A DNA stretch of 64,000 nucleotides from Planctomycetota bacterium (GCA_965223845.1 CBDCXR010000004.1:6656001-6720000), one strand, 5' to 3'. Positions 8,878 through 38,013 are shown, counted from the stretch's first letter. Made by a program: numbers and translations. The notes: generated from the letters alone by a model not told the origin.

Positions 8878-9074
8878 GGTTTCCTCGCCCTCTCGCGCGA
8901 TTCTGCGCGGCGAGCGCTCCTCGCGAGTGAATCCTGATTTCGGGTCGATGTTCTACCATCTGTAGCCGCGGCCCACCAATCGCCGGATCACTCGTTGCGC
9001 CGGTGGGCAGAGCCGCGTCAAGATGGCCTCTACGGATGCGGAAGTCGACGGCACGAGACGAAAGGACGGGAACC

Positions 9075-9851: not shown

Positions 9852-9895
9852 GGAGCACCGGCGCGCTATTCCAGACCCTCAAGCCGCGCCGATCC

Positions 9896-9986
9896 ACTTC
9901 CTCATTCTCATTCCTATTCCTACTCTCTTGCCCGTCTTCCTTCCTCTTCCTTCGCGATCCTTCGCGCTCTTCGTGTGAAACTCTTC
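9896..9986 (-). repeat. Dispersed intergenic element (GAAGAGtTTCACACGAAG core followed by a purine-rich tract)
   Basis: Reverse complement of 9969-9986 matches 45431-45448 at 17 of 18 positions; both copies follow a stop codon between convergent genes. Confidence 0.7.
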
Positions 9987-11738: not shown

Positions 11739-12256
11739 GGGGCAGACTCCATCTATGGGTTCGGGTTGTCGTGCCGCCGACCGGGGCGGCCGCCGAGGCT
11801 GGCTCTCGAGACGTTCGAGTGTGAGCTTCACATTACGGATCTTCGCTGCGGCTTCGTTGTCGAGCAAGATTCCCGTTGACTCGCTCTTCGTAGCGGCGCG
11901 ATCATGGCCGAGTCGGGGTGGAGATCGATTGATCGGGTCAACCTACTGGTAGCGGTAGAGAGAGGCGTCAATTCGGCCGGAGGGCGGTAGAGATCTGCCC
12001 TCGCGAGTCTGGCGCCAGGGCAGTGTTCTTCCGGAGACGCGTTTCCCAGCGAATCCGGAACGGTCCCAGACCGGTTGGCAACGCTGAAGATAGGTAGCGT
12101 GTCAACAGAGTCATCGCGTCGTTCTCAGGCGCGATCGAGATAGACGCGTCCAACACCGTGATTCTTCGATTCGCGGGGCATTCGGACTCGGCGCGAAGGC
12201 GGCCTCCGAGTCCGACGTCACTGTCGCCCAAATCGCGAGTACTGGAGGGTTTCGGC

Positions 12257-15200: not shown

Positions 15201-18200
15201 CACTGGAGGCTCGCCGTGGAGCTCCGTCGCTCACTCGAGTCGAGCCGCACGAAGTTCAGATCGAAGGGGGAGATAGCGTCGACGTCTTCGGCGAGAATCT
15301 GACGGAGGACACCGTCATCTTCTTCGCCCACCGACCTTTGCGAGACGCCAGACTCGTCGAAGGGCGCGAGGAGACGTTCATCCGCGGCATCGCGCCCGTG
15401 GGCGATGTCATCGGGCCCGTCGACGTGACTGCGCGCGACCCGGCCGGCGACTTCGTGCTCGAGGGCGGAGTTCGGTACGTGCGAGAGGGCAACCACATCC
15501 TCGGACCGGAGCAGGGCGAGGCGAGCCTCGCCGAGGGAACGGCGCGGTTCTCGTGGTACAACCCGGTCGCCTTCGAACGGATCGAAGTCTTGGACGAAGG
15601 CGGCAACCTCATCGACGAGCTCGACGGCGAAGCAACGGCCTACCGTTCGGACGCCGGGGATCGAGAGTCGATCACGTATTCCTTCGTTGGTTACTCCTCG
15701 GCCGATCAAGCGTCCGCGGAGCTTTCCCTCACGGCCGTTGCCCAGGACTGTGACACTCCTCCGCCATTGAGCGCCGTCGTTCAGGCACTCGATCAACGTC
15801 TCGGGGGTCTCGAGTACGCCGACGTCGAATTCAGTCTCTACGGCGCACATTCAGAGGCTGACTCCGATCGCTGCGCCGAGCCAGGCGGCGTGCTCAAGTT
15901 GGCGGCGGCAGATCTGCCACCGAGAACGGGCGCGCTCGAACCAGGCGTGGGCAACATTTCTCGGCCGAATCTTCCCGATGCGAAGCTGCCTCAAAGCGAA
16001 GCGGTGACGGGATTCTCGCTCGAAAATCCAGCGACGAAACTCGAGTTCGCGGTCCACTATCGAAAGCTCGCGGTCGCGGCGGGCGTGCGTCTGCGCGGCC
16101 ATCTCATCCAAACTTCTCCGGATTCAGGCTTTGAGGACGAGTTCTCATTTCCGCCGGTCAACATTTCGGCGACCAACGATTGGCACGTCGTCACCTACTT
16201 CCGCGCCGATTCGGACATCGGACGTGAACTCGAGGGACCCAACGATCCCGGTCCCCGGCCTTGCGGCGGCGGCGAGTGCGCCGGGGCGGAGATACCGGCC
16301 GGCGACTACGTTCTCAAGCTGTACGCGGTGAGCGGCGACCGCCAGATCCCCTACTACGCGCTCAGTAGTAATCCCGAGCCGGACGAGCTGCTCATTCCCG
16401 GGACACCCTGTCCGCCCTATCCGCTCGTACGAGTTCGCGATGTTTCCGGCGAGGCGACGCTGCCGCTCGTGTCGGGTCTCCACTGCGGGAAGCTCGAGGG
16501 AGTGCAGTGCTCCAACGACGATGTCCGCGTTCGAGTGACGGCTTTGGGTTTTTGGCTGGACGAGTGCAATCAAACTCACTCCCTCGAGCCGGTCGATCCT
16601 CGTTTCGAGTTTCAGTGGAAGATCTATACCGGATCAGTCCCGCGGGTGATTCCCTGGAGCCACCGAAACTGGTTTGAGGCTTGCCTCGCCTGCGGCTGTT
16701 ACGAGGTCGAGATTTCCGTTCGGCAAACGGGCTGTCCGACCGTTCTCAAGTACACTCGAGAGCTCGTGGTCACGCCGCCGAACTTGGCCTGTAATCCGTC
16801 GCGTCGCTTCGAGTTCCTGTACCCTCAACCTTCGCCGGCCGGCCTCGACGGCATCATCGGACTCAATCCGCCGGATGGACGACTCGGACTCGGCTCCGCG
16901 GATGAGCGCCCCTTGGAGTTTCAGATCCTCGTTTCGCCGAACACGACTTGCGGCGGTCCAGGCACGGGAAGCGTTGACAAGGACGATATCGAATTCGACA
17001 TCGGCATCCCTGGCACCAATACCTTCCGCATGGGAATTCCGTTCGAAGTCACGGACGGCTGCCCGAACACGATCGGCGGGAGCAAATACTTTCGAGTTAG
17101 GATCGCTGACCTCGGTGCCGTTCCGTATCACCCGGCGCTCGAAAGTTTCAACGGGACGCAGCTCTGGGTAATCGGCCACGCGAAGGGGACGAACGAGCCG
17201 TGGCAATCATTCTCTGGCACTCTGCGGCTCTATAATCCGCCGGCGTGCTTGGCGACGAACTCGTGGCGCGGTACCTGGGAAGAACCCGGATGCTATCGTT
17301 TCGAAACTCGCTCCAGCGAACAGCCGGAACAGCGCTTCTCGATGGGGCCGAGTCTGCCGATTGACATCGACCTTCCGGAGCTCGGTGACGGGGGGGCGGC
17401 GTCGATCAACGTCGAGGGCCATTCGTCAAACGCGGTCCAGGGCGGCTTCACCTCCCAGTTCACTCTCGAGGGCGGTGTGTGGTCCGAAGAGTCGGGCGTC
17501 GGCGGTATGCGCGGTGGCATGATGGGAAACGACATCACCGGCGCGCCGCTCGAGGTGGAGCCGAGCAGTGGCGCCGCCAAACGGCGGTGGAAGGGGGCCG
17601 ACGGAGACGACGACGATGACAACGACGATGACAAGAAACTGCCGTCGTGGGAATGGTGTGATGGCGGCAACCTCTTTAACTACGAGTTCAAGGAGGATCT
17701 CTACTCGGGCGTTATCTATCAGGGGACGATTTGGGTTATCCCGGTCAGCATCTGGGCAAATATCGGCTTCGGCTTTTTTCTCAATATTGATTACCAGCTC
17801 ACATTCAAGCTCCATCCGTTCGCGATCATCGACGGGTTCGATGCCGTCTGCGATGCGTTCGACGTCCCTCCGTGCAATCCGCTCGAGGGCTGCAATCCGT
17901 TCGAACCCGATTCCTGCAACATCAATTTCGAGAACTGCAAGATCTCGCTCGCCGACGCGTGGATGTACCTTCTTGTGCAGGCGGGAATCAATATTCCGGC
18001 GTCGATTCGCGCCGACATCCTCTTCGGAGTAGCCTCGGTCGCGATCACGGTGAAGCCGGAGGCGTCGTTTCACATCACGCCGTGGATCGAGGCGCACGCG
18101 CAGCTCCCCGATCCCGTGTTCGCCCCGCACATGGATCTCGGCGCGAGATTCAAACTCTTCGCCTCGTTGAAAGCCTGCATCTTCTGGGGGCTACAGTGCA

Positions 18201-22659: not shown

Positions 22660-24711
22660 ATGGAGAATCAGAAGACGGTAGTTGCCAAAGCGAGCCTGTG
22701 GGGCGTCGTGCTTGCGTCAGTGGCCGGGGTTTCGCCGGTTTCGTTCGCGCAGCTTTGCGAGCGCGAGGATCCGGTCGAGATCCGTCTCTACTTTCCCACG
22801 GCGTCTGGAACGTACGTGGGGATCAAGGCGCCGAGCTACCGCGACGAGATCGTCGGCGGGATGACCGAGCCGTTTCACGCCAGCAATCTCGATTTCGACC
22901 CCGCTCTCGTCAGCGACGACGATCTCATCCGTTCGATCTCGGATCTCATCCGCAAGGATTTCGAGGAATTCGACGTGGTCGTCACGACGTCTCGCGATCC
23001 GTTCGAGCATCCCGAGCCGCGTTCGGGGACTCGCACCGCGGTGATCTGCACGGATTCGAAAGCCGTCGAGATCACGGGGGGCGGCTGCGGTCATCTCATC
23101 GGATACGGTCACAACACGGGTCCGTCCGGGTATCTCGGTTGGCCGGACGTCGGTTACGCGCGCATCTGGGCCGCGAGTCTGACCGAGGTGCCGCCGACGA
23201 CGCCCTGTGCGGCCGGAACGCCGCCGTGCCGTTCCTGGCTGATCGGGACACACCACACGTTGGCGAACTGGACTCGCGCGATCGGCTCGACGCTCGCGCA
23301 TGAGATTGGCCACTCCTTCGAGCTGGGCCACTGCGAGGCGCGCGGCGGTCCGGGTGGAGACACCGACCACATCATGGCGCCGAGCACGTTCAAGTGCATG
23401 GGGACGACGACCGCCGGCCTCACCTGCGACGATCGCGTAGACAAGAGACGCTACTTCAGCGATACGAGCTACGGGATCATCGGATCGAAGACCGGGCTCG
23501 CCGTTCACACGATGCACAACTGGGACTTCGTCAACACGAACAGCACCGAAGCGGTGGAGTTTAGCATCGATTTCGTAAGCCCGAGCCTCTCGCTCGACAC
23601 GCTCTGGTCGTACGAAGGCGCGGACTGCCCGTGGGGTCCTCCCACGCTCACCTCGACGGGTCTGACGACCTTTCGCGGACGCAGCTATCCGTCGTACCGG
23701 GTCACCTGGCGAGATCCTCGCCCTTGGAGCGGCGGCACGAGCGGGCGCGTCCCGGGTGGGGGGAAGTTCCACGTCGGAGTGTCCTTCGTGCAGAAAGCAC
23801 CGGTCATCCCTACGCTCGTTCGCTTCTGGGAGAAAGATGCGAGCGGAGCTCTAGTCGAGTTGTCCGATCATCCTCGTTTCGTCGCCTACGACGACGCGGC
23901 CCTCACCGCGAGCGCTCCATGTCTCTTCGAGCTCACACTCTACAATCCCGGGAATTCGGTCCTTCGGATCGCTGACTTCCACGTGCGGTTCCTCCCGCGA
24001 TTGCCCTCGCTCGAGAGCCTCGTCGAGTCGCAGATTCTGTCTCCTCTAGATCGCGCGGGACGCCCCATCACGCGGCACGACCGGTTCAAGCTGCCGAACG
24101 ATATCCTGCTCGCGGGAGGATCGTCGGTGCAGGTCCCGCTGGCGGCCCTCTCCGACGACCGATTCATCGACATCGCCGCCAAGGTCGAACCGTCCGACGA
24201 CGAAGGGCACTACTTCGTCGGGAACCGTCTCCTCGGGCCCTTCCCGGCGACGGTGACGTACGTCACGGCGGAGATCCACGACATCGAAACGGAGAGCGTC
24301 TCGCGGATGTACTACACGATTTCGGGACACGTTCCGGACTGCAACTGCAACGGGCGAGACGACAAGCTCGAGATCGCCGACGGCAGCCTCGCCGACGCGA
24401 ATGCGAACGGAATGCCGGACATTTGCGAGCGAGAGTTCATCCGCGGCGATTCGAACGGCGACGGGACACCGAATCTGTCCGACGCCCTCTACACGCTCGA
24501 TTGGATGTTCGGTTTCTCGGGCGCTCCGATCTTCCCCGATTGCTTCGACGCTCTCGATAGTTCCGACCAAGGATCGATCAACATCTCCTCGCCGGTCTAT
24601 CTCCTCAACTACCTCTTTAGCTCGGGGCCCGCACCGCCCGCGCCGTTCCCGGGGTGCGGTCAGGATTTGACTCTCGACATCCTCGACTGCAATCGCCTCA
24701 GTTGTCCGTGA
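22660..24711 (+). CDS. Secreted metzincin-type zinc metallopeptidase with C-terminal dockerin-like domain
   Basis: Signal peptide; HEIGHSFELGH with downstream HIMAP Met-turn; PDCNCNGRDD..DANANGMPDICE repeat; FIRGDSNGDGTPNLSDALYTLDWMF. Confidence 0.85.
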   Translation: MENQKTVVAKASLWGVVLASVAGVSPVSFAQLCEREDPVEIRLYFPTASGTYVGIKAPSYRDEIVGGMTEPFHASNLDFDPALVSDDDLIRSISDLIRKDFEEFDVVVTTSRDPFEHPEPRSGTRTAVICTDSKAVEITGGGCGHLIGYGHNTGPSGYLGWPDVGYARIWAASLTEVPPTTPCAAGTPPCRSWLIGTHHTLANWTRAIGSTLAHEIGHSFELGHCEARGGPGGDTDHIMAPSTFKCMGTTTAGLTCDDRVDKRRYFSDTSYGIIGSKTGLAVHTMHNWDFVNTNSTEAVEFSIDFVSPSLSLDTLWSYEGADCPWGPPTLTSTGLTTFRGRSYPSYRVTWRDPRPWSGGTSGRVPGGGKFHVGVSFVQKAPVIPTLVRFWEKDASGALVELSDHPRFVAYDDAALTASAPCLFELTLYNPGNSVLRIADFHVRFLPRLPSLESLVESQILSPLDRAGRPITRHDRFKLPNDILLAGGSSVQVPLAALSDDRFIDIAAKVEPSDDEGHYFVGNRLLGPFPATVTYVTAEIHDIETESVSRMYYTISGHVPDCNCNGRDDKLEIADGSLADANANGMPDICEREFIRGDSNGDGTPNLSDALYTLDWMFGFSGAPIFPDCFDALDSSDQGSINISSPVYLLNYLFSSGPAPPAPFPGCGQDLTLDILDCNRLSCP

Positions 24712-27700
24712 CCCGGTCGAGCCGCGAGACCTCGATGCCGGACACGCAAGGGATCGACCTCTCGAGGCCCTCGGCACGGAAGAAAACAATGTCGAGAAAA
24801 CCGTCGTCGACCTCCGTGTCGATGACGCGAACGATCGGCTTTCCGAATCCGTGCGCCGCGGGCTCGAACGATTCGATCTCGCGATTGTCTTCCACCGCGA
24901 CGTCAAAGATGCGAGGCCACTTGAGCGCGCGTTCACCCGCGATGAAGTGGAGAGTCACGCGGTACTCTCCCGGCGGGACGGGGATGCCGTAGCCCGGCAG
25001 CCGGGTTCCCTCTTCGTTGAATCGTCGCTCGGTCTGATAGATCGGCCGGTGCTCGAGCTCGATCTGCGGTTCGTTGAGATCCGGAACGTAATCGAGCTCT
25101 CCGCCCCGGAAGAAGCGATCGTAGCTCCAGATCGCATCCTCGCGACGATAGTTGTCGCGCGCGCCGCAGTTGATCCGGAGTGACTTCCCGGCGGCGAGCT
25201 GCTCGAGAAGCCAGTGCGCGTCGCGGGCGGAGTGAGGGAGCTCGGTGAGGTCGACCTCGCCGCGGGGAAATTCAGCGGCGAGTCGCTCGACGTCCATCTC
25301 CGCGTTGAACGCGGCCGCGAGCCATTCGTCCCAAACCGTCTCGCGCTTCGAGTGCCCCGATTCGAGTGCACGACGGAGCTCCGCCTCAGCGCGCGCGTGA
25401 TGTCCTAGCTGGGCGAGAGCATCGGCGAGCCGGAGAAACGGTTCCACATGGGCGGTGTCGGCGGCGAGGACGTCGGCGTACGCCTCGGCGGCGGCGTCCC
25501 AGCGGCTCTCCAGCTCGGCGATGCGGCCTTCGAAGTACTGCACGCGAGGGGTGTCGTCCTCGCGGGCGGCCGCGCGGAACGCAGCGAGCTTCGCGCGAGC
25601 GTCCGCGAGACGCTCGGTGGCAGAGATCTCAACGCTGACGCGGGCGTCTAGATAGAGATCGTCGTCGTCCGGCGCGGCGTTGAGGACGCGTACGGCGATG
25701 ACGTTCTCTCCGGCGCGGAGCCAGTCCGGAGGAATCGGGAGACGGTCGCTATACCAGAGATCGTGCCGGTACTGCGCGACCGCATCCGGCGCGACCGGTG
25801 TCCCCGGTTTACTCTCCAGGCTTCGCACGATCTCCCGGCCGTTCACGCATGCGACGTAGTCGTCGTCCATGCGAAAGTGGACGGCGTATCCTTCGCGACT
25901 CGATGCGTCGTCGAGCGTGAATCGCCACCGGGCGTAGAGCGACGCGGAGTTGCCCCGCATCGCGCTCACGTCCGTTCCGCCCGTCCGGCACTGCGGGTAC
26001 GCGAGGGGCGACGATCCCGTCGCCCAATCGTCGTCGCGGTATTCCGGCTCGATCCAGTTCTCGAGATCTCGGACTGAGTCGCCGATCGCGTAGCGGCACG
26101 TGGCATGCGCGGCGACCGGAAAGCGCGGCGCGTCGATCGCTGCGTCAACGGAGGCGTAACTGACGAGTCGGGGAGCGAGGTGCTCGCGGTCTTGCTCGAT
26201 GAGGGTCGTGATCGCTCGACTATGTGTATCGGTGAGCGAAGCTTTTTCGAGGCGGCGAAGCTGCGCCGCGACGGTGTCCACCTCGCCGAAGGGCTTCCGA
26301 TCTTGAAGGTGGATCTTCGAGTAGACGTGGTAGACGCCGTCGTAGTCGGGCGCGAAGGATTGAACCTTGTGGACTCGTTCGAGCGCCTCGTCGCGACGAT
26401 CCGCTTTGTAAAGAGTCTCCGTCAAGTACTTCCAGGGCGGGCACCAGTTCTCCGTGAGCTCGATGGTTCTCTCGTACGCGGCGATCCGTTCGCTCCGAAG
26501 AGCGGGGTTTCGTTCGTAAACGTTCCCGAGGCGATACCACGCCAGCCAACTGTCCGGATAGCGTTCGAGCGCGCTCTTGTACTCGGAGATCGCCTCGTCC
26601 TTCTTTCTCGCCTTGCGAAGGCACGAACCGAGATTGCACCGAACGAGCTCTCCTTCCATTCCGGCGGCCATCGCCGCGCGGTACTCGTCCGCAGCTTCAG
26701 CGAACATTCGCCGCCGCTCGAGAAGCCACGCGAGGTTGTAATGCGCGGCGGAGAGGGGCGCCGCGCCGCTCGTCGCGCGGCGATAGAGACCTTCTGCGCG
26801 GTGCGACTCGCCTCGCTCTTCGCAGATGGTTCCGAGGTGGTTGAGGGCGACGGATTGCTCCGGCGCGATCGCGAGGCTTCGCTCGAGCTCTGCTTCCGCC
26901 GCGTCGAGGTTTCCTCGCGCTTGGAGGGTTCGCGCGAGGCTGAGGCGCGCGCCGACGAAGCTCGAGTCGAGTCGAATCGCTTCGCGGAGCGACTTCTCCC
27001 CGCTCGCGAACTGTCCTCGGCGGGTGCGAGCGATGCCGGCGCCGACGAGCGCGGTGACGTTCCGCGGATCGCGGCGAGCGACGCTTTGATAGAGTTCGGT
27101 CGCGCGCTCGAGCTCGCCGCTCGCGAGCCGGATGTGCCCTTCGATGAGACTCGCACCGACGAGTCCGGGAGAAGACATCCGAACTTCGCGACAGACGGCG
27201 AGAGCTTCCTCGACCCGGCCGGCAGCGAAGAGCGCCCGTGAACGCTCGAGCTGGGCGGACGGGTCGTCGGAGAATCGTTCGCTCCACGCGACCGCGCGAT
27301 CGACGTCGCCGAGGTTGAGCAGCATCCAGGCGACGCTCCGCACAATCTCGTCCCGGCCCTCCGGCAGCGATCCGTCCGGCGCCACACGCCGGAGCAAGGC
27401 GTCCGCCTCCGTCGGTCGATCGAGGAGAAAGAGCGCCTTCGCGCCGAGGATCACTGGCTCCGCCCAACCATCGCGCAGGTTTTCTGCGGCAGCGAATGCA
27501 CGTGAGGCGATGACCGGGTCGCCGCGCTCGAGCTGCACGCGTCCGTAGTCGACGCGGCTTTGGAGGACGAGAAGATCAAGATCACTCTTCGGCCCCGACT
27601 CAATCGATTGCGCACTCACGGCGCCGAGCGCGGACGCGGCCGCCTCCCAGCGGGAGTCGAGCATCGCCCTCTGTCCGGCGACCCAGTGGCGGAGCCATGC

Positions 27701-29533
27701 GGGACCGGCAGCGAGTGCGCGATCTAGCTCGGCCGCGGCCGCGGTCGCCGCCGACGTGCGCTGGAGCCGAACGAGTGCTTCGTGACGCAGAAACTGCGCC
27801 GGCACGAACCTCCGATCCTTGGTGAGCGCGAGCGACGCGGCGGAATTCGCCGCGGCCGCTCGACCGCTCTCGAGGTGCGTGCGTCCGAGAAAGTAGTGCC
27901 CGATCGGGCGATCCGGCGCGAGGGCGATCGCGGCGCGAAACGAGGTGACGGCGCGTTCGAGCGGATCATCGGCGCCGGGCCACTCGAGCGCTCCCGCTTC
28001 GACGATCTCGGGGTGAGAGCGCAGAATCGGGAACCGATCGCCGAACGGTAGCTCGAGACGGAGCGGGTGGCGCCGTTTCCGATCTTCGAGGATTTCGTCG
28101 ACCGCCATTCTCTCGAGAGTCGCCTCGGGTCGCATTGCGACGCGCGCGAGCTCGGTGATCCCTCGGATCACGTGTCCTTCGTGTTCCGACTGAACTCGGT
28201 CGCGGTGGAGACTCCAGAACTGATTTCCCGCCGCAGCGCCGAGAGCGGCCAGGATCACGGTGAACGCGCCGATCGCGACCCCGACTCGGTGCCGCCGCAG
28301 CCAGTAGCCGATGCGATTCGCGCGCGTGAGGCGCGGCGTCTCACCGGGATCACCGCGCGCGATGCGAACGAGTTCTTCGCGCAGCGCCGCGGCGCTGCGG
28401 AAGCGCTCCGTCGGCTTCTTCCGGAGACACTTCATCGCGACCGCTTCGAGATCCGCCGAGACGTCGGGCGCGAGGCTCCTCACCGGTACGGGATCTTCGC
28501 TCCGGATCTTTCGCAGGGTCTCGAGGTCGTGCCGGCCCTCGAGTGGAGGACGGAGCGTCAGCATCTCGTAGAGCGTCGCACCGAGGCTGTAGATGTCCGA
28601 CGCCTCCTCGGCCGGCTGCGGCGGATCGGCGGCTTGCTCGGGGCTCATATAGAGGACGGTCCCGACGCGCTCGCCCGACTCCGTGAGACCGCTCTCGCCC
28701 TTGACGCGTGCGATTCCGAAGTCGAGGACTCGAAGATCGCCATCGGGACTCACGATGAGATTCGACGGCTTGATGTCGCGGTGCACGATGTCGTGGCTGT
28801 GCGCGTGATCGAGTCCCGCCGCGGCGCCCGCGAACGCGCGCGCGAGCCAGCGGCAGTACGAGTCGTGCGGACTTCGCGCCTCTGTCGGCTCGGCCGGCGA
28901 CCAGCGGCCGCGCGAGTCGTCGGGGAAACGTTCCGTCTCATCGCCCCAAGTCGAGCCCGACGCCTCGAGCTCGGAGAGCACGTGCCGCCGGAACTCCGCG
29001 AGCGATCCTCCGCTCGACGAACCGCAGCGCTCCCCGAGCGTCTTTAGAGTCTCGCCCTCGGCGAGCTCCATCGCGTAGTAGGGAACTCCGCCCGCGACGC
29101 CCCCGGCGAGCACAGAAACCACGTTCGGATGGCGGAGCCGCGCGGCCATGAGGGATTCGCGGCGGAATCGCGCGCGCGCCTTCGGATTCGAAGCGAGCGC
29201 CGCCGGAAGAATCTTGACCGCCGCGTCGCGATCGAGCGAACGCTGTCTCGCGCGGCAGACGATGCCCATTCCGCCCGTGTCGAGGATGCCGAGAATATCG
29301 AAGTCGCCGAGGCGCTCGGGAAGTGGCGGATCTTCGGCGAGCGCGCGGAGCTCCTCGAGGACGTCGAGCTCGTCGGTGAGGTTGCGAGCGGCGTCCGGGT
29401 TCTCGCGCAGAACTCGCGCTAGCTCTCCCGAGCCGGCTCGCGCCCTCAGGTCGAGTAGCTCGGCTAGGCGCAGCGCATCGTCGCGCTTCTCGGCCTCGTC
29501 TTCGGGATCACGAGGAGGATGACGATCGGACAT
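24698..29533 (-). CDS. Hanks-type Ser/Thr kinase with TM segment, TPR repeats, beta-sandwich domain and C-terminal malectin-like domain
   Basis: GGMGIV, AAVK, HRDIKPSN, DFG, GTVLYMSPEQA, SDIYSLG; TPR helices; RINCGA..WSYDRFF..YQTER..YRVTLHF..RIFDV. Confidence 0.93.
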   Translation of the reverse strand: MSDRHPPRDPEDEAEKRDDALRLAELLDLRARAGSGELARVLRENPDAARNLTDELDVLEELRALAEDPPLPERLGDFDILGILDTGGMGIVCRARQRSLDRDAAVKILPAALASNPKARARFRRESLMAARLRHPNVVSVLAGGVAGGVPYYAMELAEGETLKTLGERCGSSSGGSLAEFRRHVLSELEASGSTWGDETERFPDDSRGRWSPAEPTEARSPHDSYCRWLARAFAGAAAGLDHAHSHDIVHRDIKPSNLIVSPDGDLRVLDFGIARVKGESGLTESGERVGTVLYMSPEQAADPPQPAEEASDIYSLGATLYEMLTLRPPLEGRHDLETLRKIRSEDPVPVRSLAPDVSADLEAVAMKCLRKKPTERFRSAAALREELVRIARGDPGETPRLTRANRIGYWLRRHRVGVAIGAFTVILAALGAAAGNQFWSLHRDRVQSEHEGHVIRGITELARVAMRPEATLERMAVDEILEDRKRRHPLRLELPFGDRFPILRSHPEIVEAGALEWPGADDPLERAVTSFRAAIALAPDRPIGHYFLGRTHLESGRAAAANSAASLALTKDRRFVPAQFLRHEALVRLQRTSAATAAAAELDRALAAGPAWLRHWVAGQRAMLDSRWEAAASALGAVSAQSIESGPKSDLDLLVLQSRVDYGRVQLERGDPVIASRAFAAAENLRDGWAEPVILGAKALFLLDRPTEADALLRRVAPDGSLPEGRDEIVRSVAWMLLNLGDVDRAVAWSERFSDDPSAQLERSRALFAAGRVEEALAVCREVRMSSPGLVGASLIEGHIRLASGELERATELYQSVARRDPRNVTALVGAGIARTRRGQFASGEKSLREAIRLDSSFVGARLSLARTLQARGNLDAAEAELERSLAIAPEQSVALNHLGTICEERGESHRAEGLYRRATSGAAPLSAAHYNLAWLLERRRMFAEAADEYRAAMAAGMEGELVRCNLGSCLRKARKKDEAISEYKSALERYPDSWLAWYRLGNVYERNPALRSERIAAYERTIELTENWCPPWKYLTETLYKADRRDEALERVHKVQSFAPDYDGVYHVYSKIHLQDRKPFGEVDTVAAQLRRLEKASLTDTHSRAITTLIEQDREHLAPRLVSYASVDAAIDAPRFPVAAHATCRYAIGDSVRDLENWIEPEYRDDDWATGSSPLAYPQCRTGGTDVSAMRGNSASLYARWRFTLDDASSREGYAVHFRMDDDYVACVNGREIVRSLESKPGTPVAPDAVAQYRHDLWYSDRLPIPPDWLRAGENVIAVRVLNAAPDDDDLYLDARVSVEISATERLADARAKLAAFRAAAREDDTPRVQYFEGRIAELESRWDAAAEAYADVLAADTAHVEPFLRLADALAQLGHHARAEAELRRALESGHSKRETVWDEWLAAAFNAEMDVERLAAEFPRGEVDLTELPHSARDAHWLLEQLAAGKSLRINCGARDNYRREDAIWSYDRFFRGGELDYVPDLNEPQIELEHRPIYQTERRFNEEGTRLPGYGIPVPPGEYRVTLHFIAGERALKWPRIFDVAVEDNREIESFEPAAHGFGKPIVRVIDTEVDDGFLDIVFFRAEGLERSIPCVSGIEVSRLDRVTDN

Positions 29534-30230
29534 CGCGGTTCCGCCCCGTCCAGCTCGACTTAGCGCTCAGTGAGCGATCGCGCGGAAGGCTGAAGCTGTC
29601 AGTCGGGCCGAATCTCCGCCGCAGCTTCTGAAGGGCTCTTTTGAGGCGCATGGAAGTCGCCTCGCGAGTGAGACCGAGGCGCCGAGCCATCTCATTGACG
29701 GGCAGGTTCTCGATCTGAGTCATCAGGATGAGAGTTCGGTCGGCCTGCGGCAAACCGGCGAGCGCGCGCTCGAGGCGTTCGAATCGCTCCGTCTGCCGGA
29801 TGCGCGTTCCCTCCGTACTCCCTTTACGACGAGTTGGGTAGACCGAATCGTCGAGTTTTTTCGGGTTACCAGGCGCTCGCTTTCCGGTCTTGAAGTAGTG
29901 GCGGTCGTGATTGCGGATGACGTTCTCCGCCACACTCGCCAGCCAGCGGCGGAAGGTCGCGTGGGCCTTCGTTCGCGAGCTGTCGCCTTGCCACTTGAAC
30001 GAATCGATCGCCTTGATGGCCTGAAGGAGCGCATCCTGGACGACGTCCTCGACGGTTTCTCGCGTGCGGAGGCGCGGACCGAGTCGCGCGCGCACGAAGG
30101 CTTCGAGGTGAGGTCTCTGCGCAACGAGGAGTTGCTGCGACGCCGCGCGGTCGCCGTCGACCGCGGCGAGAACGAGTTTTTCTTCGCCGCGATCGTCGTG
30201 TCGCGGAGAAGAACGTGACGACCGTTGCAT
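29508..30230 (-). CDS. ECF RNA polymerase sigma factor coupled to the kinase gene
   Basis: EDVVQDALLQA..FRRWL (region 2) and LERALAGLPQADR..MARRLGLTREATSMRLKRAL (region 4); overlaps the kinase start. Confidence 0.92.
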   Translation of the reverse strand: MQRSSRSSPRHDDRGEEKLVLAAVDGDRAASQQLLVAQRPHLEAFVRARLGPRLRTRETVEDVVQDALLQAIKAIDSFKWQGDSSRTKAHATFRRWLASVAENVIRNHDRHYFKTGKRAPGNPKKLDDSVYPTRRKGSTEGTRIRQTERFERLERALAGLPQADRTLILMTQIENLPVNEMARRLGLTREATSMRLKRALQKLRRRFGPTDSFSLPRDRSLSAKSSWTGRNRDVRSSSSS

Positions 30231-32377: not shown

Positions 32378-33367
32378 ATGAAAGCGAACTTGACGGCACC
32401 TGCTATCGGCGCGACTCCGTACTCGAGAGGACTCGACGGCATCCTCGAGCGCATGCGCGGAGGAGATGTGGACGGCGGCATGGGCGAGCTCTTTCGCTCG
32501 CTCAAGTCGTGGCGCGCGAACGCCGCCGGAGACTGGGAAGACGTGATCGAGCGCCAGTGTCTCGCGCATCCGGTCGCCGACGCGATCTTTCAGGATCCGA
32601 TGGCGTTTCATTCCTACACTCGGCCCCGGGGATATCCCGGCGACGCTGAGCTCCTCGACTACATCTACGGACTCAAGGCGAGCGAGGTCGCGACGAACGC
32701 ATCGCCTCTCGGTCGCGCCGTGCACGAGTTTCTGTACGACGCGCCGGCGGCCCGAGCGGTGAGAGCGCGTCGCGAGGTGCTCGCGCGGCTCGTCGATGAA
32801 ACCGCCGCACGGGTAAAGAACGCTCGTGTCCTGTCGATCGCCGCCGGACACCTTCGCGAAGCGGCTCTCTCGAGCGCCGTGCGTGAAGGAAGGCTCGGCG
32901 AGTACGTCGCGCTCGACCAGGACGAGCGCAGTCTCGAGGAGATCGAGGCGAGCTACGGCTCTCTCGGCGTGCGAACGGTTCCGGGCTCCGTACGCGATCT
33001 CCTCGCTGGACGCGTCGAGTTCGCGGGCTTCGATCTCGTCTACGCGGCCGGGCTCTACGACTACCTCCAGCAGCGCACGGCGCGCCGGTTGACTCGCATC
33101 ATGTTCGACGCGCTTCGGCCGGGCGGGAGACTCCTCGTCGCCAATTTTTTGCCGGACATCGGCGACGTCGGCTTCATGGAGAGCTACATGAGCTGGCAGC
33201 TGATCTACCGGTCGCGCCCTGAGCTCCTCGACGTCGCCGAGGAGATCCCCATCGCGAGTCACGATCGGCTCCGGCTGTACACCGAGCGAAGTCGCTCGAT
33301 CCTCTTCCTCGATGTCGAGCGGAACGAAGAGAGGAGGGCGAACGATGCTTGCGAAGGAGATCTTTAA
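32378..33367 (+). CDS. Class I SAM-dependent methyltransferase, PhcB-like (3-hydroxy fatty acid methyl ester synthase-like)
   Basis: SYTRPRGYPGDAELLDYIY, VLSIAAGHLRE, ALDQD, FDLVYAAGLYDYL, LRPGGRLLVANF, MESYMSWQLIYRS. Confidence 0.8.
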   Translation: MKANLTAPAIGATPYSRGLDGILERMRGGDVDGGMGELFRSLKSWRANAAGDWEDVIERQCLAHPVADAIFQDPMAFHSYTRPRGYPGDAELLDYIYGLKASEVATNASPLGRAVHEFLYDAPAARAVRARREVLARLVDETAARVKNARVLSIAAGHLREAALSSAVREGRLGEYVALDQDERSLEEIEASYGSLGVRTVPGSVRDLLAGRVEFAGFDLVYAAGLYDYLQQRTARRLTRIMFDALRPGGRLLVANFLPDIGDVGFMESYMSWQLIYRSRPELLDVAEEIPIASHDRLRLYTERSRSILFLDVERNEERRANDACEGDL

Positions 33368-34412
33368 TCTCGGCGGGCGCTCGACGCCGCGCGGGCTCGC
33401 GATCTTCGCCTTCGATGCGGCGCTCTACCTCGCCATCACTGCGGCCATCGTCCGGGTCGACTCGCTCTGGCTGAAGCTCGCGCTCGGCGTCGCCGGAGGC
33501 TTCGCGATCGGGTTTCTCTTCCTTCTCGGGCACGACGCCTGCCACCAGAGCCTCACGCCGCGGAAGCGGCTCAATCACGTCCTCGGTCGCCTTGCGTTTC
33601 TGCCGAGTCTCCATCCCTTCAGCCTTTGGGATCTCGGGCACAACCGCGTCCATCACCGCTTCACGAACCTGCGCGAGAAGGACTACGTCTGGGCGCCGCT
33701 CACGCTCGAAGAGTACGAGCGAGCGAGCCGCTGGCAACGTTTAGTCTATCGCTTCTACCGCACGCCGATCGGTTGTCTCTGCTACTTCCTCGTCGACATC
33801 TGGTGGCGGCGCATGTTCGCGTACGAACTGACGGTGAAGAGTCGCACGTGGACGTATCAACTCGATCGCGCCCTCGTCGCGGTGTTCATCGTCGCGCAAG
33901 TCGCGGGGATCTGGACCCTCGATCGCTGGTTCCATCCCGGTGCGGCGACCGGCGCGGGGCACACCGTGATCCTCTTCGGCAGCGCTCTCGTCCTTCCCTT
34001 CCTCGTCTGGAACGCCCTCGCGTCGTTTCTCATCTACCTCCACCACACGCATCCGACAGTGCGGTGGTACCGCGAAAAGAGCGACTGGGCGCGCGCGAGC
34101 GTGCAGCTCGAGAGCACGGTCCACACGGTGTTTCCCGGTCCGATCAATTGGCTCCTCCACCGGATCATGGAGCACACCGCCCACCATGTGAATCCGGCCA
34201 TTCCCTGCTACCACCTGAAAAAGGCGCAGGATTACATCGTCCGCCATCATCCCGACCAGGTCGTCGTCGAGCGGTGGTCGCTCCGGAAGTTCCTCGACTC
34301 CGTCCGACGCTGCAAGCTCTACGACTTCGATCGCGGCGTGTGGACGGACTACGAGGGGCGAGTGACGTCGGTATCCGCGGCGGCACCGGCCGAGACCGCA
34401 GCGAGTGCTTGA
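33345..34412 (+). CDS. Membrane fatty acid desaturase (DesA/omega-6-like)
   Basis: Three His boxes HDACH, HNRVHH and HTAHH; TM segments; GAGGAGG RBS; overlaps the methyltransferase 3' end. Confidence 0.93.
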   Translation: MLAKEIFNLGGRSTPRGLAIFAFDAALYLAITAAIVRVDSLWLKLALGVAGGFAIGFLFLLGHDACHQSLTPRKRLNHVLGRLAFLPSLHPFSLWDLGHNRVHHRFTNLREKDYVWAPLTLEEYERASRWQRLVYRFYRTPIGCLCYFLVDIWWRRMFAYELTVKSRTWTYQLDRALVAVFIVAQVAGIWTLDRWFHPGAATGAGHTVILFGSALVLPFLVWNALASFLIYLHHTHPTVRWYREKSDWARASVQLESTVHTVFPGPINWLLHRIMEHTAHHVNPAIPCYHLKKAQDYIVRHHPDQVVVERWSLRKFLDSVRRCKLYDFDRGVWTDYEGRVTSVSAAAPAETAASA

Positions 34413-34414
34413 TC

Positions 34415-37400
34415 ATGGTCTACCCGACGCTGAACGGATCCTCCGCGCGGTTGATCGCACCGCGCGACCTAGACGAGTACCTCGAGCTCTACCGGGCGAT
34501 GGTGATGGCGCGCGCGCTCGACGAAGTGGAACGCGCGCTCGTCGAACGCGGCGAGGCGCACTTCCACGTGAGCGGCGCTGGACACGAGGGCATCGCCGTC
34601 GCGAACCGTCACCTCGAACCGGAGGATTGGCTGCATCCCCACTACCGTGACAAGGCGCTTCTGCTCGCGCGGGGCGTTCCAGTCGTCCGGTTTCTCGACG
34701 CGCTCGTCTCGAACGCGCGATCGCATTCCCGGGGACGCCAGATGAGCGCTCACATGAGCGCGCCCGAGCTCCGCGTCCTGAGCACGGTCGGTCCGGTCGG
34801 AAACAACGCGCTGCAAGCGGTCGGAGTCGCCGCCGAGGTCGCGCGCGGGCCCGGGTCGCCGATCGTTTTCTGCAGCCTCGGCGACGGAACGACGCAAGAA
34901 GGCGAGGTTCTCGAGGCTGTCGCCGAGGCGGCGCGCTCGGAGCTCCCCGTTCTCTTCGTCGTCGAGGAGAATCGCTACGCGATTTCGACCGAAACCGCGG
35001 GCCGGACGTTCTACGATCTGCCGCGCGGACCCGCGTCGGAGCTCTTCGGCGTGCCGATTCTTCGCGTCGACGGCGCCGACGTCTCGGCGGCGGACCGCGT
35101 CCTCGGAGCCGCCATCGGTCGCATGCGCAGCCAGCGCTCGCCGGCGATCGTGATCTTCGAGGTCGAGCGACTCTGTAGCCACACGAATGCCGACGATGAG
35201 CGCGTCTACCGCTCGGAGAAGGAGCGGCTCGAGGCGAGGGAGTCGCGCGATCCGATTCCGGTTCTCGAGGAGCAGCTTCGGCGCTCGGGCGTCACGGAAG
35301 ACGCGCTCGGGCGCTTGCGCGACGAGGTCACAGAGTCGCTCAGCGAGGCGACGGCGTCCGCGCTCGCGGTGGGGGATCCCGAGCCCGCGCTCGACGCTCG
35401 TCCCGCCGCCTTGGCGTCGATGGGTCACGAGTACCGAGGGCGAGAGAGCGGTGAGCAACGGACGATGCTCGAAGCGATGCGTTCCGTGCTCGAAGCCTGG
35501 CTCGAGTGCGATCCTCGCGTGTCGATCTTCGGAGAGGACATCGAAGATCCGAAGGGAGATGTCTTCGGACTGACGCGCGGGCTCAGCACGCGATTCGGCG
35601 ATCGCGTCCGCAATTCGCCCCTCAGCGAATCGACGATTGTCGGGGTCGCCATCGGACGCGCCCTCGCCGGCGGACGACCTGTCGCGTGCATTCAATTCGC
35701 GGACTTCCTTCCCCTCGCGTGGAACCAGATCGCCGCCGAGCTCGGCACCATGGCGTGGCGAACGGACGGCGGCTGGGAAAGTCCGGTGCTCGTCCTCGCG
35801 CCCTGCGGCGGCTACCGGCCCGGGCTCGGACCGTTTCATGCGCAGACCTTCGAGTCGAGCCTCGCGCACGTTCCGGGCATCGACGTCGTCGTTCCGTCGA
35901 CCGCCGGCGACGCGGCGGGACTCCTGAACGCCGTGCTCGCGTCGAAGCGACCCACGGTGTTCCTCTACCCGAAGATCTGCCTCAACGATCCGTCGCGTTC
36001 GACGTCGAATGACATCGGCGCGCATTTCGTTCCGGTCGGCGTCGCTCGCCGCCTGCGTTCGGGCGACGATCTCACGCTCGTCAGTTGGGGGAGTACGATC
36101 CCTCTTTGTGAGCGGGCCGCACAGACGCTCTCGGAGGCCGGCGCGCGAGTCGATCTCTTCGATCTCCGCTCGATCGCGCCCTGGGACCGCGATGCCGTGC
36201 TCGAGTCGGCGCGGCGGACGCGCCGGCTTCTCGTCGTTCACGAGGACAACGCGACGTGCGGATTCGGCGCGGAGATCGTCGCGACCATCGCGGAGGCTTG
36301 CCCCGCGGTCGAATGCCGTCGGGTGACTCGTCCCGATACTTACGTTCCGTGCAACTTCACGAACCAGATCACGGTCCTTCCGTCGTACCGCTCGATCGTC
36401 TCGGCAGCGGCGGAGCTGGTCGATTTCGAGCTCGAGTGGCGGGATCGCGAGGTCGACGCGAGCGACGAGGTGATCGTTCCGGCGCATGGATCGAGTCCGG
36501 CGGATCAGTCGGTGAGCGTCGTCGAGTGGCTAGCCGCGCCCGGCGACGAAGTCGAAGCGGGAGCGACGATCGCCGAGGCCGAGGCGGACAAGGCGGTCTT
36601 CGAGATCAAAGCCCCGCGTCCCGGAACGATCCGGCGGCTCTGCGTCGGGCCGGGCGAGACGGTGCGCGTCGGAGAACCTCTCTACGCCCTCGAGGCCGTC
36701 GGCCGCGAGCTCGCCGGTCGACGGGCCGGGCGGGCGAGGGCGCGTCGTGAGCGGCGCGGGAACGAATCCCCGCACCTACGCCGACGTCCGCGTCGGGGCG
36801 ATGCGCCGCGACCCGGGACTCTCGCTGAACCGGCAGCGGAGCGGACCGGCGTCGTTCGGCTGGCGCCTCCGTGCTGCGCGCTCGGTTCCCGCATCGTGAC
36901 GAACGAAGAGATCGCGGCTCGGTTTCCCGATCGGAGCGCCGAGGACATCCGAACTCGAACCGGTATCGAGCGCAGGCGGCGCGTGAACGCTGACGAAGAC
37001 GCGTTCGCGCTCGCCGTCCGCGCGAGCTCTGCTGCGCTCGAGCGCGCCGGGCTCGCCGCGTCCGATCTCGATCTAGTCGTCTGCAGCACGACGACTCCGC
37101 CGCTCGCGAGCCCGACGCTCGCGTGTCGAGTGCTCGATGCGCTGTCGGAGTCGGGTCGCGCCTACGCGGAGGCGTACGACCTCAACGCCGCCTGTTCGGG
37201 GTATCTCTACGCGCTCGCGAGCGCATACGACTTTCTCTCTGCGCGTCGCGCGGGGATCGCGCTCGTTCTCACGGCCGAGGTACTCTCACCGGTCCTCGAC
37301 GAGGCAGATTTTGCTACGAGCATCCTCTTCGGCGACGCAGCATCGGCGACGATCCTTCGCGCGGGTCTCGAAGCGGGCGATGCGCGCAGCGCGGTCGGCT

Positions 37401-37843
37401 GGACCGTGAGCGGACGGCCGTTCGTGACGGCGCGCGGCGAACGTGGGTCGCTCCTCCGTGTTCCGCACGCTGGGGCCGGCTTCGCGAGCATGCAGGGTCG
37501 ACGCGTCTTCGGCGAGGCGGTGCGCGCGATGAGCGATGCCCTTCACCGGGCCGCGAGCGCTGCGGGCAGCTCGGTCGGTGATCTCGACTGGATCGTGCCG
37601 CACCAGGCGAACTCTCGGATCATCGAGGCGGTGACGCATCGCCTCGGGGGCGATCCGGTACGCGTCGTCGACTGGATCCGCGACTGGGGGAACACCTCTT
37701 CGACGAGTATCCCCCTCTGCCTCGAGAGGCTCGCGCTCGAGCTCGGCGGCGGCGAGAGACTGGGGCTCTGCGCCTTTGGTGGCGGGCGGACCGCGGGGGC
37801 GGCGGTGCTCGAAACGAGACGGACTGGCCCTCCGGGTGCGTGA
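34415..37843 (+). CDS. Fused 2-oxoacid dehydrogenase E1alpha-E1beta, lipoyl domain and FabH-type ketosynthase (KAS III)
   Basis: ATG 34415, just after the desaturase stop; ThDP motif GDGTTQEG..EENRYAIST; E1beta FGEDI..NSPLSESTIVG..QFADF; lipoyl EADKAVFEI; KAS III DLNAACSG, HQAN and GNTSS. Confidence 0.92.
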   Translation: MVYPTLNGSSARLIAPRDLDEYLELYRAMVMARALDEVERALVERGEAHFHVSGAGHEGIAVANRHLEPEDWLHPHYRDKALLLARGVPVVRFLDALVSNARSHSRGRQMSAHMSAPELRVLSTVGPVGNNALQAVGVAAEVARGPGSPIVFCSLGDGTTQEGEVLEAVAEAARSELPVLFVVEENRYAISTETAGRTFYDLPRGPASELFGVPILRVDGADVSAADRVLGAAIGRMRSQRSPAIVIFEVERLCSHTNADDERVYRSEKERLEARESRDPIPVLEEQLRRSGVTEDALGRLRDEVTESLSEATASALAVGDPEPALDARPAALASMGHEYRGRESGEQRTMLEAMRSVLEAWLECDPRVSIFGEDIEDPKGDVFGLTRGLSTRFGDRVRNSPLSESTIVGVAIGRALAGGRPVACIQFADFLPLAWNQIAAELGTMAWRTDGGWESPVLVLAPCGGYRPGLGPFHAQTFESSLAHVPGIDVVVPSTAGDAAGLLNAVLASKRPTVFLYPKICLNDPSRSTSNDIGAHFVPVGVARRLRSGDDLTLVSWGSTIPLCERAAQTLSEAGARVDLFDLRSIAPWDRDAVLESARRTRRLLVVHEDNATCGFGAEIVATIAEACPAVECRRVTRPDTYVPCNFTNQITVLPSYRSIVSAAAELVDFELEWRDREVDASDEVIVPAHGSSPADQSVSVVEWLAAPGDEVEAGATIAEAEADKAVFEIKAPRPGTIRRLCVGPGETVRVGEPLYALEAVGRELAGRRAGRARARRERRGNESPHLRRRPRRGDAPRPGTLAEPAAERTGVVRLAPPCCALGSRIVTNEEIAARFPDRSAEDIRTRTGIERRRRVNADEDAFALAVRASSAALERAGLAASDLDLVVCSTTTPPLASPTLACRVLDALSESGRAYAEAYDLNAACSGYLYALASAYDFLSARRAGIALVLTAEVLSPVLDEADFATSILFGDAASATILRAGLEAGDARSAVGWTVSGRPFVTARGERGSLLRVPHAGAGFASMQGRRVFGEAVRAMSDALHRAASAAGSSVGDLDWIVPHQANSRIIEAVTHRLGGDPVRVVDWIRDWGNTSSTSIPLCLERLALELGGGERLGLCAFGGGRTAGAAVLETRRTGPPGA

Positions 37844-38013
37844 TGCGAGCGCGCTTCGCGCGGAGGTCTGCGGGGGCGTCGCGATCGCGATTGACTTCCG
37901 TTCGGGCGAGGAAATAATCGCATCCTTCGTGCCGGGGCCGCCGCGACGGATCGGGGTCCGATCCGCGGGCCGCCGGCATCGCTCGCCCCCGCTCTCTCCC
38001 GAGGCCACCCGCG

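Follow-up and report, generated by a model that had tools for sequence, protein, structure and literature searches.

A methyltransferase-desaturase pair and an E1-lipoyl-KASIII fusion packed as one gene unit in a planctomycete: a possible lipid methyl ester signal beside a possible CoA-free entry into fatty acid synthesis

In Ralstonia and Cupriavidus, 3-OH-PAME or 3-OH-MAME is made by the SAM methyltransferase PhcB, which is accompanied by the sensor kinase PhcS and by PhcR, a response regulator with kinase output. Xanthomonas uses an unsaturated fatty acid as its signal in the DSF system (RpfF/RpfC/RpfG), where a hybrid kinase with Hpt and an HD-GYP response regulator do the sensing. FadL-type proteins are outer-membrane channels for hydrophobic molecules, and the membrane acyl-lipid desaturases include Bacillus Des/DesA (delta-5) and cyanobacterial DesA (delta-12). 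In Bacillus, Listeria and Staphylococcus, branched-chain 2-oxoacid dehydrogenase (E1alpha/beta, E2, E3) and FabH prime the synthesis of branched-chain fatty acids. As described in excerpts of the papers concerned, phcBSRQ is chromosomal (PMC2864759, PMC2842291), and the phc operon is built from a methyltransferase, a membrane histidine kinase and a response regulator with HATPase (PMC2842291, PMC6989110); an excerpt of the last of these also mentions RpfC.

The window, which is the whole stretch of 64,000 nucleotides analysed here, comes from a Planctomycetota bacterium. Translation of its open reading frames revealed three co-oriented genes on the + strand at 32378-37843, packed as one unit and with catalytic motifs intact in all three. 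They encode a SAM methyltransferase (MT), a membrane fatty acid desaturase and an E1alpha-E1beta-lipoyl-KASIII fusion, with the following features:

32378..33367, + strand: MT, 329 aa, a class I SAM-dependent methyltransferase from the family with the PRGYxGDA motif, assigned from weak Pfam matches and fold
32624..32668, + strand: N-terminal family-defining motif of MT, PRGYPGDAELLDYIY, residues 83-97, with residues invariant among 24 sequences
33345..34412, + strand: membrane fatty acid desaturase (PF00487), 355 aa, the length that this protein has in the database
34415..37843, + strand: E1alpha-E1beta-lipoyl-KASIII single polypeptide, 1142 aa, six Pfam domains
34490..35383, + strand: E1 alpha (TPP-binding) domain of the fusion, E1_dh, E 1.4e-43, with GDG at 34880-34888 and N186 at 34970-34972
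35459..36358, + strand: E1 beta domains of the fusion, Transket_pyr and Transketolase_C, from Pfam and the solved chain 1um9_B
36467..36688, + strand: lipoyl domain of the fusion, Biotin_lipoyl, E 2.9e-14, with K726 at 36590-36592 in an ADKA context
36881..37813, + strand: KASIII (FabH) domain of the fusion, with Cys927 at 37193-37195, His1063 at 37601-37603 and Asn1093 at 37691-37693

The MT gene starts with ATG and is preceded by a GGGAG Shine-Dalgarno-like site and a spacer of ~320 nt. The MT and desaturase genes share 23 nt, or 56 nt if the desaturase starts at an alternative ATG at 33312, giving 366 aa, and the ATG of the fusion lies 2 nt past the desaturase stop. Downstream, 170 nt with a promoter-like site at 37891-37918 lie between the unit and the next gene. 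The one terminator-like site in the whole unit is a weak one at 33122, inside the MT gene; across the region 3 such sites were counted, and shuffled sequence would give 3.9. The genes, domains and intact motifs described in the sequence-only reading were confirmed at these coordinates by translation, Pfam and alignments of relatives. By Pfam, the genes flanking the unit in the window are an unrelated mix, the downstream ones being housekeeping genes. Here the trio makes up a single compact transcription unit that looks like two separable modules, the MT-desaturase pair and the fusion.

MT matches no curated family: its Pfam matches were all sub-threshold (Methyltransf_25, 24.6 bits; Methyltransf_12, 23.4; Methyltransf_20, 20.2), and an NCBIfam search returned 0 families. 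Its AlphaFold model (pLDDT 90.7, pTM 0.87) has the class I methyltransferase fold, and every one of the top PDB fold matches is a SAM methyltransferase, led by 3ocj, an uncharacterised Bordetella protein (TM 0.58/0.63), with generic methyltransferases after that and no function assigned by the fold search. In an alignment of 24 sequences, the motif PRGYxGDA..D..Y (invariant P83, R84, G85, Y86, G88, D89, A90, D94 and Y97) and five further motifs were invariant. The homologue search gave 1086 matches, and the family comprises 4306 representative clusters. Like PhcB, MT is a soluble SAM methyltransferase, and 27 of 119 listed homologues bear the JGI product name "3-OH-PAME biosynthesis protein"; a likeness to PhcB is suggested by these third-party labels and by the gene context of the family. 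When MT was compared with a plasmid collection by tblastn, 144 records matched, of which 127 were Rhizobium; Ralstonia and Cupriavidus, in which phcBSRQ is itself chromosomal, contributed no record. Two fused forms, P0447 (AMP-binding, carrier domain and MT) and P0497 (PKS dehydratase domain and MT), point to acyl chemistry for this family, probably at the carboxyl or thioester end.

The surroundings of MT were compared across 80 loci carrying relatives of 38-52% identity, with flanks of up to 8 kb a side, crudely called ORFs (longest ORF, greedy) and neighbour classes assigned by phmmer from few seeds. Within three genes of MT, a signalling gene was found at 34 of the 80 loci, a Ser/Thr kinase at 30, a FadL at 22 and a desaturase at 12, counted as the main tally plus locus L005. 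Signalling genes made up 17.3% of near-MT genes against 1.8% of far genes in the same loci (p 1e-13), FadL 5.3% against 0.3%, and desaturases 2.9% against 0.3% (p 0.009), the loci being related lineages rather than independent samples. The enriched neighbours are histidine kinases, response regulators of the HD-GYP and kinase-output types, Hpt proteins and FadL channels; such neighbourhoods span at least seven phyla, and gene order is kept within lineages. A crude hydropathy scan found 2-6 TM-like segments in the kinases adjoining MT. From these neighbourhoods, MT looks like a member of a signal-synthase family.

Individual loci resemble both of the described signalling systems in part. Two Tepidisphaeraceae loci (L012, L078) carry FadL, MT, a multi-TM histidine kinase and a response regulator with kinase output, so that the order of methyltransferase, membrane histidine kinase and regulator with HATPase matches the phc arrangement outlined in excerpts of PMC2842291 and PMC6989110. 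Many other relatives differ from phcBSRQ in their transducers, which are HD-GYP regulators, Hpt proteins and giant Ser/Thr-kinase hybrids, in the additional FadL channel, and in hosts that belong to phyla other than Pseudomonadota. Several Pirellulales-type loci carry a giant protein joining kinase, histidine kinase and response regulator, followed by MT, FadL (at some loci only), an HD-GYP regulator and Hpt. A hybrid kinase, an Hpt protein and an HD-GYP regulator thus adjoin these relatives as they make up the Xanthomonas system, and the product proposed here would likewise be an unsaturated fatty acid derivative; the synthase, however, would be a methyltransferase, alone or together with a desaturase, rather than a crotonase. 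The window contains none of those transducer genes. Since no histidine kinase, response regulator or FadL was found by Pfam among the 42 window ORFs scanned, the window copy of MT is without signalling-type context, and it differs from phcBSRQ in having no adjoining kinase or regulator. Two other candidates in the window were rejected: an upstream Ser/Thr kinase as kin of the MT-adjacent kinases, the matches covering the kinase-domain region only (residues ~67-477), and an ECF sigma factor as a relative of the P0401 sigma region, the match being insignificant (E 0.048).

The pairing of MT with a desaturase is a further difference from the phcBSRQ operon, in which no desaturase appears as described in excerpts of PMC2864759, PMC2842291 and PMC6989110. 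A quick tree with SH-aLRT support placed the window MT in a small desaturase-paired clade beside a large signalling-linked clade of Pirellulales and Gemmatales. The MT-desaturase adjacency recurs at no fewer than four separate positions of the MT tree, in several phyla; the pair stands alone at L005, with no fusion within 8 kb, and at L003 MT, desaturase, FadL and histidine kinase all occur at one locus. The desaturase itself matches FA_desaturase (PF00487) at 102.7 bits against a cut-off of 29.7, has the His boxes HDACH, HNxxHH and HTAHH invariant in 14 sequences, and shows three TM-like segments in a hydropathy scan. These features it shares with Bacillus Des/DesA and cyanobacterial DesA, from which it differs by its methyltransferase partner and by its DesA score: the nearest NCBIfam model, delta-5 desaturase DesA, gave 93.5 bits against a cut-off of 500, and the protein is therefore not a DesA equivalog. 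The JGI name on its homologues is delta-12/omega-6 desaturase, and the four best homologues have MT homologues on the same contigs.

The fusion combines E1_dh (residues 26-323), Transket_pyr (349-522), Transketolase_C (542-648), Biotin_lipoyl (685-758), ACP_syn_III (921-987) and ACP_syn_III_C (1049-1133). Among 26 aligned sequences the mean column identity is 60%, and G156-D157-G158...N186 (TPP), lipoyl K726 and the KASIII residues C927, H1063 and N1093 are invariant. The closest solved chains to the E1 part are 1um9_A, the alpha subunit of a Thermus 2-oxo acid dehydrogenase (E 4e-41), and 1um9_B for E1 beta (E 3e-55). This part is nearer to the E1 of branched-chain 2-oxoacid dehydrogenase than to that of pyruvate dehydrogenase, which upholds, on the E1 side, the earlier proposal of branched starters from 2-oxoacids. 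NCBIfam assigns no substrate class to the E1, because all of its E1 equivalog models scored below their cut-offs; its match to the fusion is beta-ketoacyl-ACP synthase 3 (PRK09352), at 250.2 bits against a cut-off of 249. The KASIII domain aligns at full length with solved FabH chains (E 1.6e-44, residues 14-321 of the 331 searched).

With the described pairing of branched-chain 2-oxoacid dehydrogenase and FabH, the fusion shares the E1 alpha/beta type, a lipoyl domain, a full FabH with its Cys-His-Asn triad, and a common logic leading from 2-oxoacid through primer to 3-ketoacyl-ACP. It differs in being one polypeptide in which Pfam detects neither an E2 acyltransferase core nor an E3-binding (peripheral-subunit-binding) domain, with nothing E2-like between the lipoyl domain and KASIII. 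Because both are lacking, an acyl-CoA intermediate is not obviously made by the fusion. No separate E2 or E3 was found by Pfam among the scanned window ORFs. Relatives of fused length number at least 2066, the named ones mostly from Planctomycetota, and the fusion is, judged by these relatives, a widespread family of its own that also occurs without the MT-desaturase pair. Split forms keep the lipoyl domain joined to KASIII, in E1beta-lipoyl-KASIII and lipoyl-KASIII clusters (Atlas 0.91 and 0.87), which is a lead only.

The sequence-only reading had joined all three genes in one dedicated pathway, in which a special (branched) starter comes from the fusion, a double bond is put into the chain and MT methylates the product to a volatile methyl ester or specialised lipid. 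Of that reading the genes, domains, motifs and E1 type stood, whereas co-conservation of the trio did not hold at broad scale. An E1 or lipoyl match was found at 0 of the 80 MT loci (38-52% identity, flanks up to 8 kb a side), and a stand-alone KASIII-like gene at one, L014. The fusion family is large, and its member P0125 lies on a 7.8-Mb contig, with no MT or desaturase match listed on a contig of that size. The pair without the fusion at L005, and the housekeeping nature of the genes downstream in the window, also speak against one pathway. In its favour are the tight packing, with the 23-nt overlap and 2-nt gap inside the unit and spacers of ~320 nt and 170 nt at its ends; the nearest relative, whose homologues of MT, desaturase and fusion have 59% identity each and each lie on a 266,593-nt contig, so that the trio may persist there; and the positions of the KASIII-like gene at L014, directly downstream of MT, and of a KS gene after the desaturase at L044. 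On balance a single dedicated pathway appears unlikely. The three-gene arrangement, which is not a conserved cluster, looks like a local juxtaposition of two independent modules, and what ties the modules to each other is only the operon packing in this genome. The 2-nt gap, the 23-nt overlap and, in the nearest relative, a contig shared by all three homologues would also fit a real link between the modules, through which the fusion might feed the pair, although this is less likely.

A second alternative is that MT and the desaturase modify bulk membrane lipids without making a signal, for example by introducing a double bond and then adding a methyl group to the acyl chain or the head group, as happens when methyl-branched or cyclopropane fatty acids are made. 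The desaturase is an acyl-lipid-type membrane enzyme, with delta-12/omega-6 names from JGI and DesA as its nearest NCBIfam model, sensor genes are missing near the window copy, and cyclopropane fatty acid synthases rank 12 and 23 among the MT fold matches. These fold matches, however, are no better than those of generic methyltransferases (TM 0.40-0.43, 11-12% identity), the family is tied to kinases, response regulators and FadL rather than to lipid synthesis genes, and the fused MT forms point to chemistry at the carboxyl or thioester end; we consider bulk-lipid modification improbable. That the three genes are functionally unrelated and merely packed by a compact genome would agree with the poorly conserved gene order here and the mixed flanking genes, but it is hard to reconcile with an MT-desaturase adjacency found at four or more MT tree positions in several phyla, or with the MT linkage of the desaturase's best homologues, and is very improbable. 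It is scarcely credible that MT C-methylates 2-oxoacids in the way of SgvM, an alpha-keto acid C-methyltransferase, and supplies an unusual 2-oxoacid as primer for the E1-lipoyl-KASIII protein. Fold matches two to seven are indeed to SgvM (E about 1e-9), and a 2-oxoacid decarboxylating enzyme is encoded in the same operon as MT, but TM-scores of only 0.47-0.48 at 13-14% identity are generic for the fold, no other MT locus has an adjoining E1 (0/80), and the desaturase pairing and signalling context are left unexplained.

The explanation that we prefer, at about even chances, is that MT and the desaturase make an unsaturated lipid methyl ester signal, and that the fusion, as a separate module, primes fatty acid synthesis by transfer from its lipoyl arm to KASIII. 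By analogy with Ralstonia PhcB, MT would methylate a fatty-acid-derived carboxylate to a lipophilic, diffusible methyl ester, and the paired desaturase would add a double bond to the acyl chain before or after methylation, so that the product may be a signal of the unsaturated fatty acid methyl ester type. In the fusion, the TPP-dependent E1 would decarboxylate a 2-oxoacid, probably branched-chain, and reductively acylate its own lipoyl-lysine K726. As there is no E2 core, the acyl-dihydrolipoyl arm would hand the acyl group directly to C927 of KASIII, which would condense it with malonyl-ACP and so prime fatty acid synthesis without acyl-CoA, and a separate E3 would be needed to re-oxidise the lipoyl arm.

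A wider model can be proposed tentatively. Phc-like lipid methyl ester signalling may exist in Planctomycetota, Acidobacteriota, Myxococcota and other non-proteobacterial phyla, with the PRGYxGDA-motif methyltransferase as synthase, here joined by a desaturase to yield an unsaturated signal. Transduction would fall to HD-GYP and kinase-output regulators and to giant Ser/Thr-His kinase hybrids, possibly also to ECF sigma/kinase pairs, FadL would take the signal through the outer membrane, and CoA-free priming from lipoyl arm to FabH would be encoded in the same operon; this joint reading is possible, though doubtful.

A literature search turned up no account of an E1-lipoyl-KASIII fusion and none of planctomycete homologues of PhcB, and the search gave no description of CoA-free initiation in which the lipoyl arm passes straight into FabH. 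If the MT family truly consists of signal synthases, it would provide a testable handle on cell-to-cell signalling in planctomycetes, acidobacteria and myxobacteria, groups in which no signal synthase of this kind surfaced in the literature search, and the candidates for synthase, channel and sensor are already set out by gene order in the MT loci. If the fusion works as proposed, it would represent a further route into bacterial fatty acid synthesis, in which the lipoyl arm replaces CoA as the acyl carrier into FabH.

Three open reading frames are present on the + strand at 32378-37843, as the sequence-only reading had stated:

32378-33367, + strand, SAM methyltransferase gene, 329 aa (ORF and predicted methyltransferase fold)
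33345-34412, + strand, membrane fatty acid desaturase gene (PF00487)
34415-37843, + strand, E1alpha-E1beta-lipoyl-KASIII fusion gene, 1142 aa (Pfam domains)

The methyltransferase and desaturase genes share 23 nt and 2 nt separate the desaturase gene from the fusion gene, with a spacer of ~320 nt 5' of the methyltransferase gene and, 3' of the fusion gene, one of 170 nt that contains a promoter-like site. In this genome the packing of the trio suggests an operon. The desaturase matches PF00487 at 102.7 bits, and its three histidine boxes are invariant. The reading favored here, at about an even chance, is that two modules are joined: a PhcB-like methyltransferase and the desaturase would produce an unsaturated lipid methyl ester, while the fusion would be a generally used primer-forming enzyme co-transcribed with them by chance.

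A species-representative genome collection was scanned with the methyltransferase family as query, and the best 80 loci of 440 relatives were kept; being the best-scoring ones, with 38-52% identity to the window methyltransferase, they are not independent samples. When these loci were searched by tblastn with the window proteins, no E1alpha, E1beta or lipoyl match was obtained in any of the 80 and a KASIII-like gene, standing alone, in one (L014), while a close desaturase relative adjoined the methyltransferase in nine, or 12 of 80 with more divergent desaturases included. The lack of co-conservation that the sequence-only reading named as refuting it therefore applies at broad scale to the trio, though not to the methyltransferase-desaturase pair. 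Each of the four best desaturase homologues is found on a contig equal in size to that of a methyltransferase homologue (P0244 and methyltransferase P0005, 2783 nt; P0245 and P0006, 266,593 nt; P0247 and P0056, 4752 nt) or at the same locus (P0246, 33,403-nt contig, L005), and the pair is likewise apparent in these nearest relatives. Among the four contigs, a fusion homologue (P0124) was found only on the 266,593-nt one. This contig of the nearest relative, carrying homologues of all three genes, and the operon packing fit a dedicated three-gene pathway; set beside the 80 loci lacking E1 and lipoyl matches, such a pathway is considered unlikely. On a quick tree, the closest relatives of the window methyltransferase, which are paired with desaturases, group with it (SH-aLRT 92); a large signaling-linked planctomycete clade is adjacent, and desaturase pairing requires at least four origins. 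That methyltransferase and desaturase modify membrane lipids is somewhat less probable than the three-gene pathway, and that the packing of the trio is pure coincidence is highly improbable.

The methyltransferase gave only sub-threshold methyltransferase matches in Pfam, matched no family in NCBIfam, and found no relative better than E 0.005 among the sequences of solved structures. Its predicted model, built from a 24-homologue alignment (pLDDT 90.7), has the Rossmann-type fold of SAM methyltransferases and a helical cap at its N-terminus; the top fold matches in the PDB are all SAM methyltransferases, the best being 3ocj, an uncharacterized Bordetella protein. The family comprises 4306 representative clusters at E <=0.001 and 798 at <=1e-30, and 27 of 119 listed homologues bear the JGI product name 'extracellular factor (EF) 3-hydroxypalmitic acid methyl ester biosynthesis protein'. 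In some longer members acyl-handling domains are fused to the methyltransferase, as in P0447 (1076 aa; AMP-binding and carrier domains) and P0497 (702 aa; PKS dehydratase N-terminal domain), and P0363 (704 aa) is a tandem double methyltransferase. Among the plasmid records matched, 127 of 144 are from Rhizobium, with copies on plasmids and chromids 40-44% identical; at L081 (4593-7807), from Rhizobium ruizarguesonis plasmid CP140816.1, the gene is divergent from an adjoining EAL-domain protein.

The surroundings of the relatives were surveyed by calling ORFs in the 80 loci, annotating representatives by Pfam and extending the labels with phmmer seeds, ORF calling being crude in GC-rich DNA, where the L005 desaturase was overlooked. 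Up to three genes away from the methyltransferase, a two-component or c-di-GMP signaling gene occurs in 34 of 80 loci, a Ser/Thr kinase in 30, often as one giant kinase-AAA-TPR-HisKA-HATPase-receiver protein, a FadL/TodX outer-membrane channel in 22 and a desaturase in 12. Neighbor classes are far commoner by the methyltransferase than farther out in the same loci (signaling genes 17.3% of near genes vs 1.8% of far ones; FadL 5.3% vs 0.3%). Gene orders recur within lineages. The Pirellulales-type order runs giant hybrid kinase, methyltransferase, FadL (not in every locus), RR-HD-GYP and Hpt; in Pirellulaceae (L037, L069, L072, L074, L048 and L032; example L069, 1169-12109) a first protein of ~2000 aa with kinase, AAA_16, TPR, HisKA, HATPase and receiver domains is followed by the methyltransferase, a FadL/TodX channel, a receiver-HD-GYP and an Hpt protein, a candidate complete signaling system. 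The Tepidisphaeraceae loci L012 and L078 carry FadL, methyltransferase, a multi-TM histidine kinase and a receiver fused to a kinase ATPase domain; this module (5603-13296 in L012, which additionally has a receiver-GGDEF-EAL) is also seen in L026 and L004. L003 holds methyltransferase, desaturase, FadL and kinase within one locus.

An unusual PhcS/PhcR architecture has been described for the phc system (PMC2842291, PMC6989110), and the Tepidisphaeraceae order of methyltransferase, histidine kinase and receiver-kinase ATPase shows that same arrangement. The L012-type order resembles phcB-phcS-phcR. Among the 42 window ORFs scanned by Pfam, no two-component kinase or regulator and no FadL was found.

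In three loci (L053, L071 and L077) the pair has a gene for a FeeM-like N-acyl amino acid synthase no more than three genes away, a hint that N-acyl amino acids may be methylated by some members of the family. The L014 KASIII-like gene (9025-9897) is directly 3' of an acidobacterial methyltransferase, and a FabB/F-type ketosynthase follows the pair in a Caldilineaceae genome (L044, 10041-11318). Acidobacteriota loci L008, L018 and L033 share the order patatin-like phospholipase, Ser/Thr kinase (~900 aa with TPR), small ORF, methyltransferase.

Within the window, an ECF-type sigma factor gene (29508-30230, - strand) overlaps by 26 nt a Ser/Thr kinase gene (24698-29533, - strand; 1611 aa, TPR repeats, C-terminal malectin domain), the two being divergent from the methyltransferase gene and 2.1 kb upstream of it. 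In the methyltransferase homologue P0401 (53% identity) an ECF sigma and part of a kinase are attached, either as a true fusion or as genes run together; the kinase part shares 48% identity with the window kinase across 94 residues, and the sigma part gave no match to the window sigma factor. The link is a possible lead. Elsewhere lie giant ORFs of 2905 aa (12158-20875, + strand; DUF7948, SBBP beta-propeller and TIG domains) and 1516 aa (1940-6490, - strand; right-handed beta-helix repeats), and a 282-aa ORF (9003-9851, + strand) whose Kazal-type serine protease inhibitor domains are uncommon in bacteria.

Pfam resolves the fusion into E1alpha, a two-domain E1beta, a single lipoyl domain and an entire KASIII, and finds neither an E2 catalytic core nor an E3-binding domain. 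Across 26 homologues of 50-59% identity there is no variation in the TPP motif, in lipoyl K726 or in the KASIII triad C927/H1063/N1093. A length-restricted search (628-1999 aa) gave 2066 fused-length relatives, and among the 119 listed ones query coverage is 89-99%, with the same domain set as far as tabulated; most of those that are named belong to Pirellulales, Gemmataceae and Phycisphaeraceae, and a few to Verrucomicrobiales and others. Branched-chain 2-oxoacid dehydrogenase E1, from Thermus and elsewhere, resembles the E1 part more closely than pyruvate dehydrogenase E1 does (E1 alpha, 144 vs 88 bits), and the KASIII part corresponds to an ordinary FabH of full length. That the methyltransferase is an SgvM-like 2-oxoacid C-methyltransferase feeding E1 is the least credible reading of all. 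As a lead, Atlas clusters of E1beta-lipoyl-KASIII (score 0.91) and lipoyl-KASIII alone (0.87) keep the lipoyl-KASIII junction, which suggests that it is a conserved feature. Since a lipoyl arm is present and the E2 core is absent, the simplest mechanism would be direct delivery: E1 would load the acyl group onto K726, the lipoyl arm would hand it to C927, skipping the CoA thioester on this route, and a separate E3 would recycle the arm.

Full-text literature searches turned up no account of an E1-lipoyl-KASIII fusion, nor of planctomycete homologues of PhcB; both modules are assembled from well-known domains. In conclusion, the surroundings, domain fusions and product names of the methyltransferase family fit a lipophilic-signal synthase, its putative likeness to PhcB lying in gene context and JGI product names.
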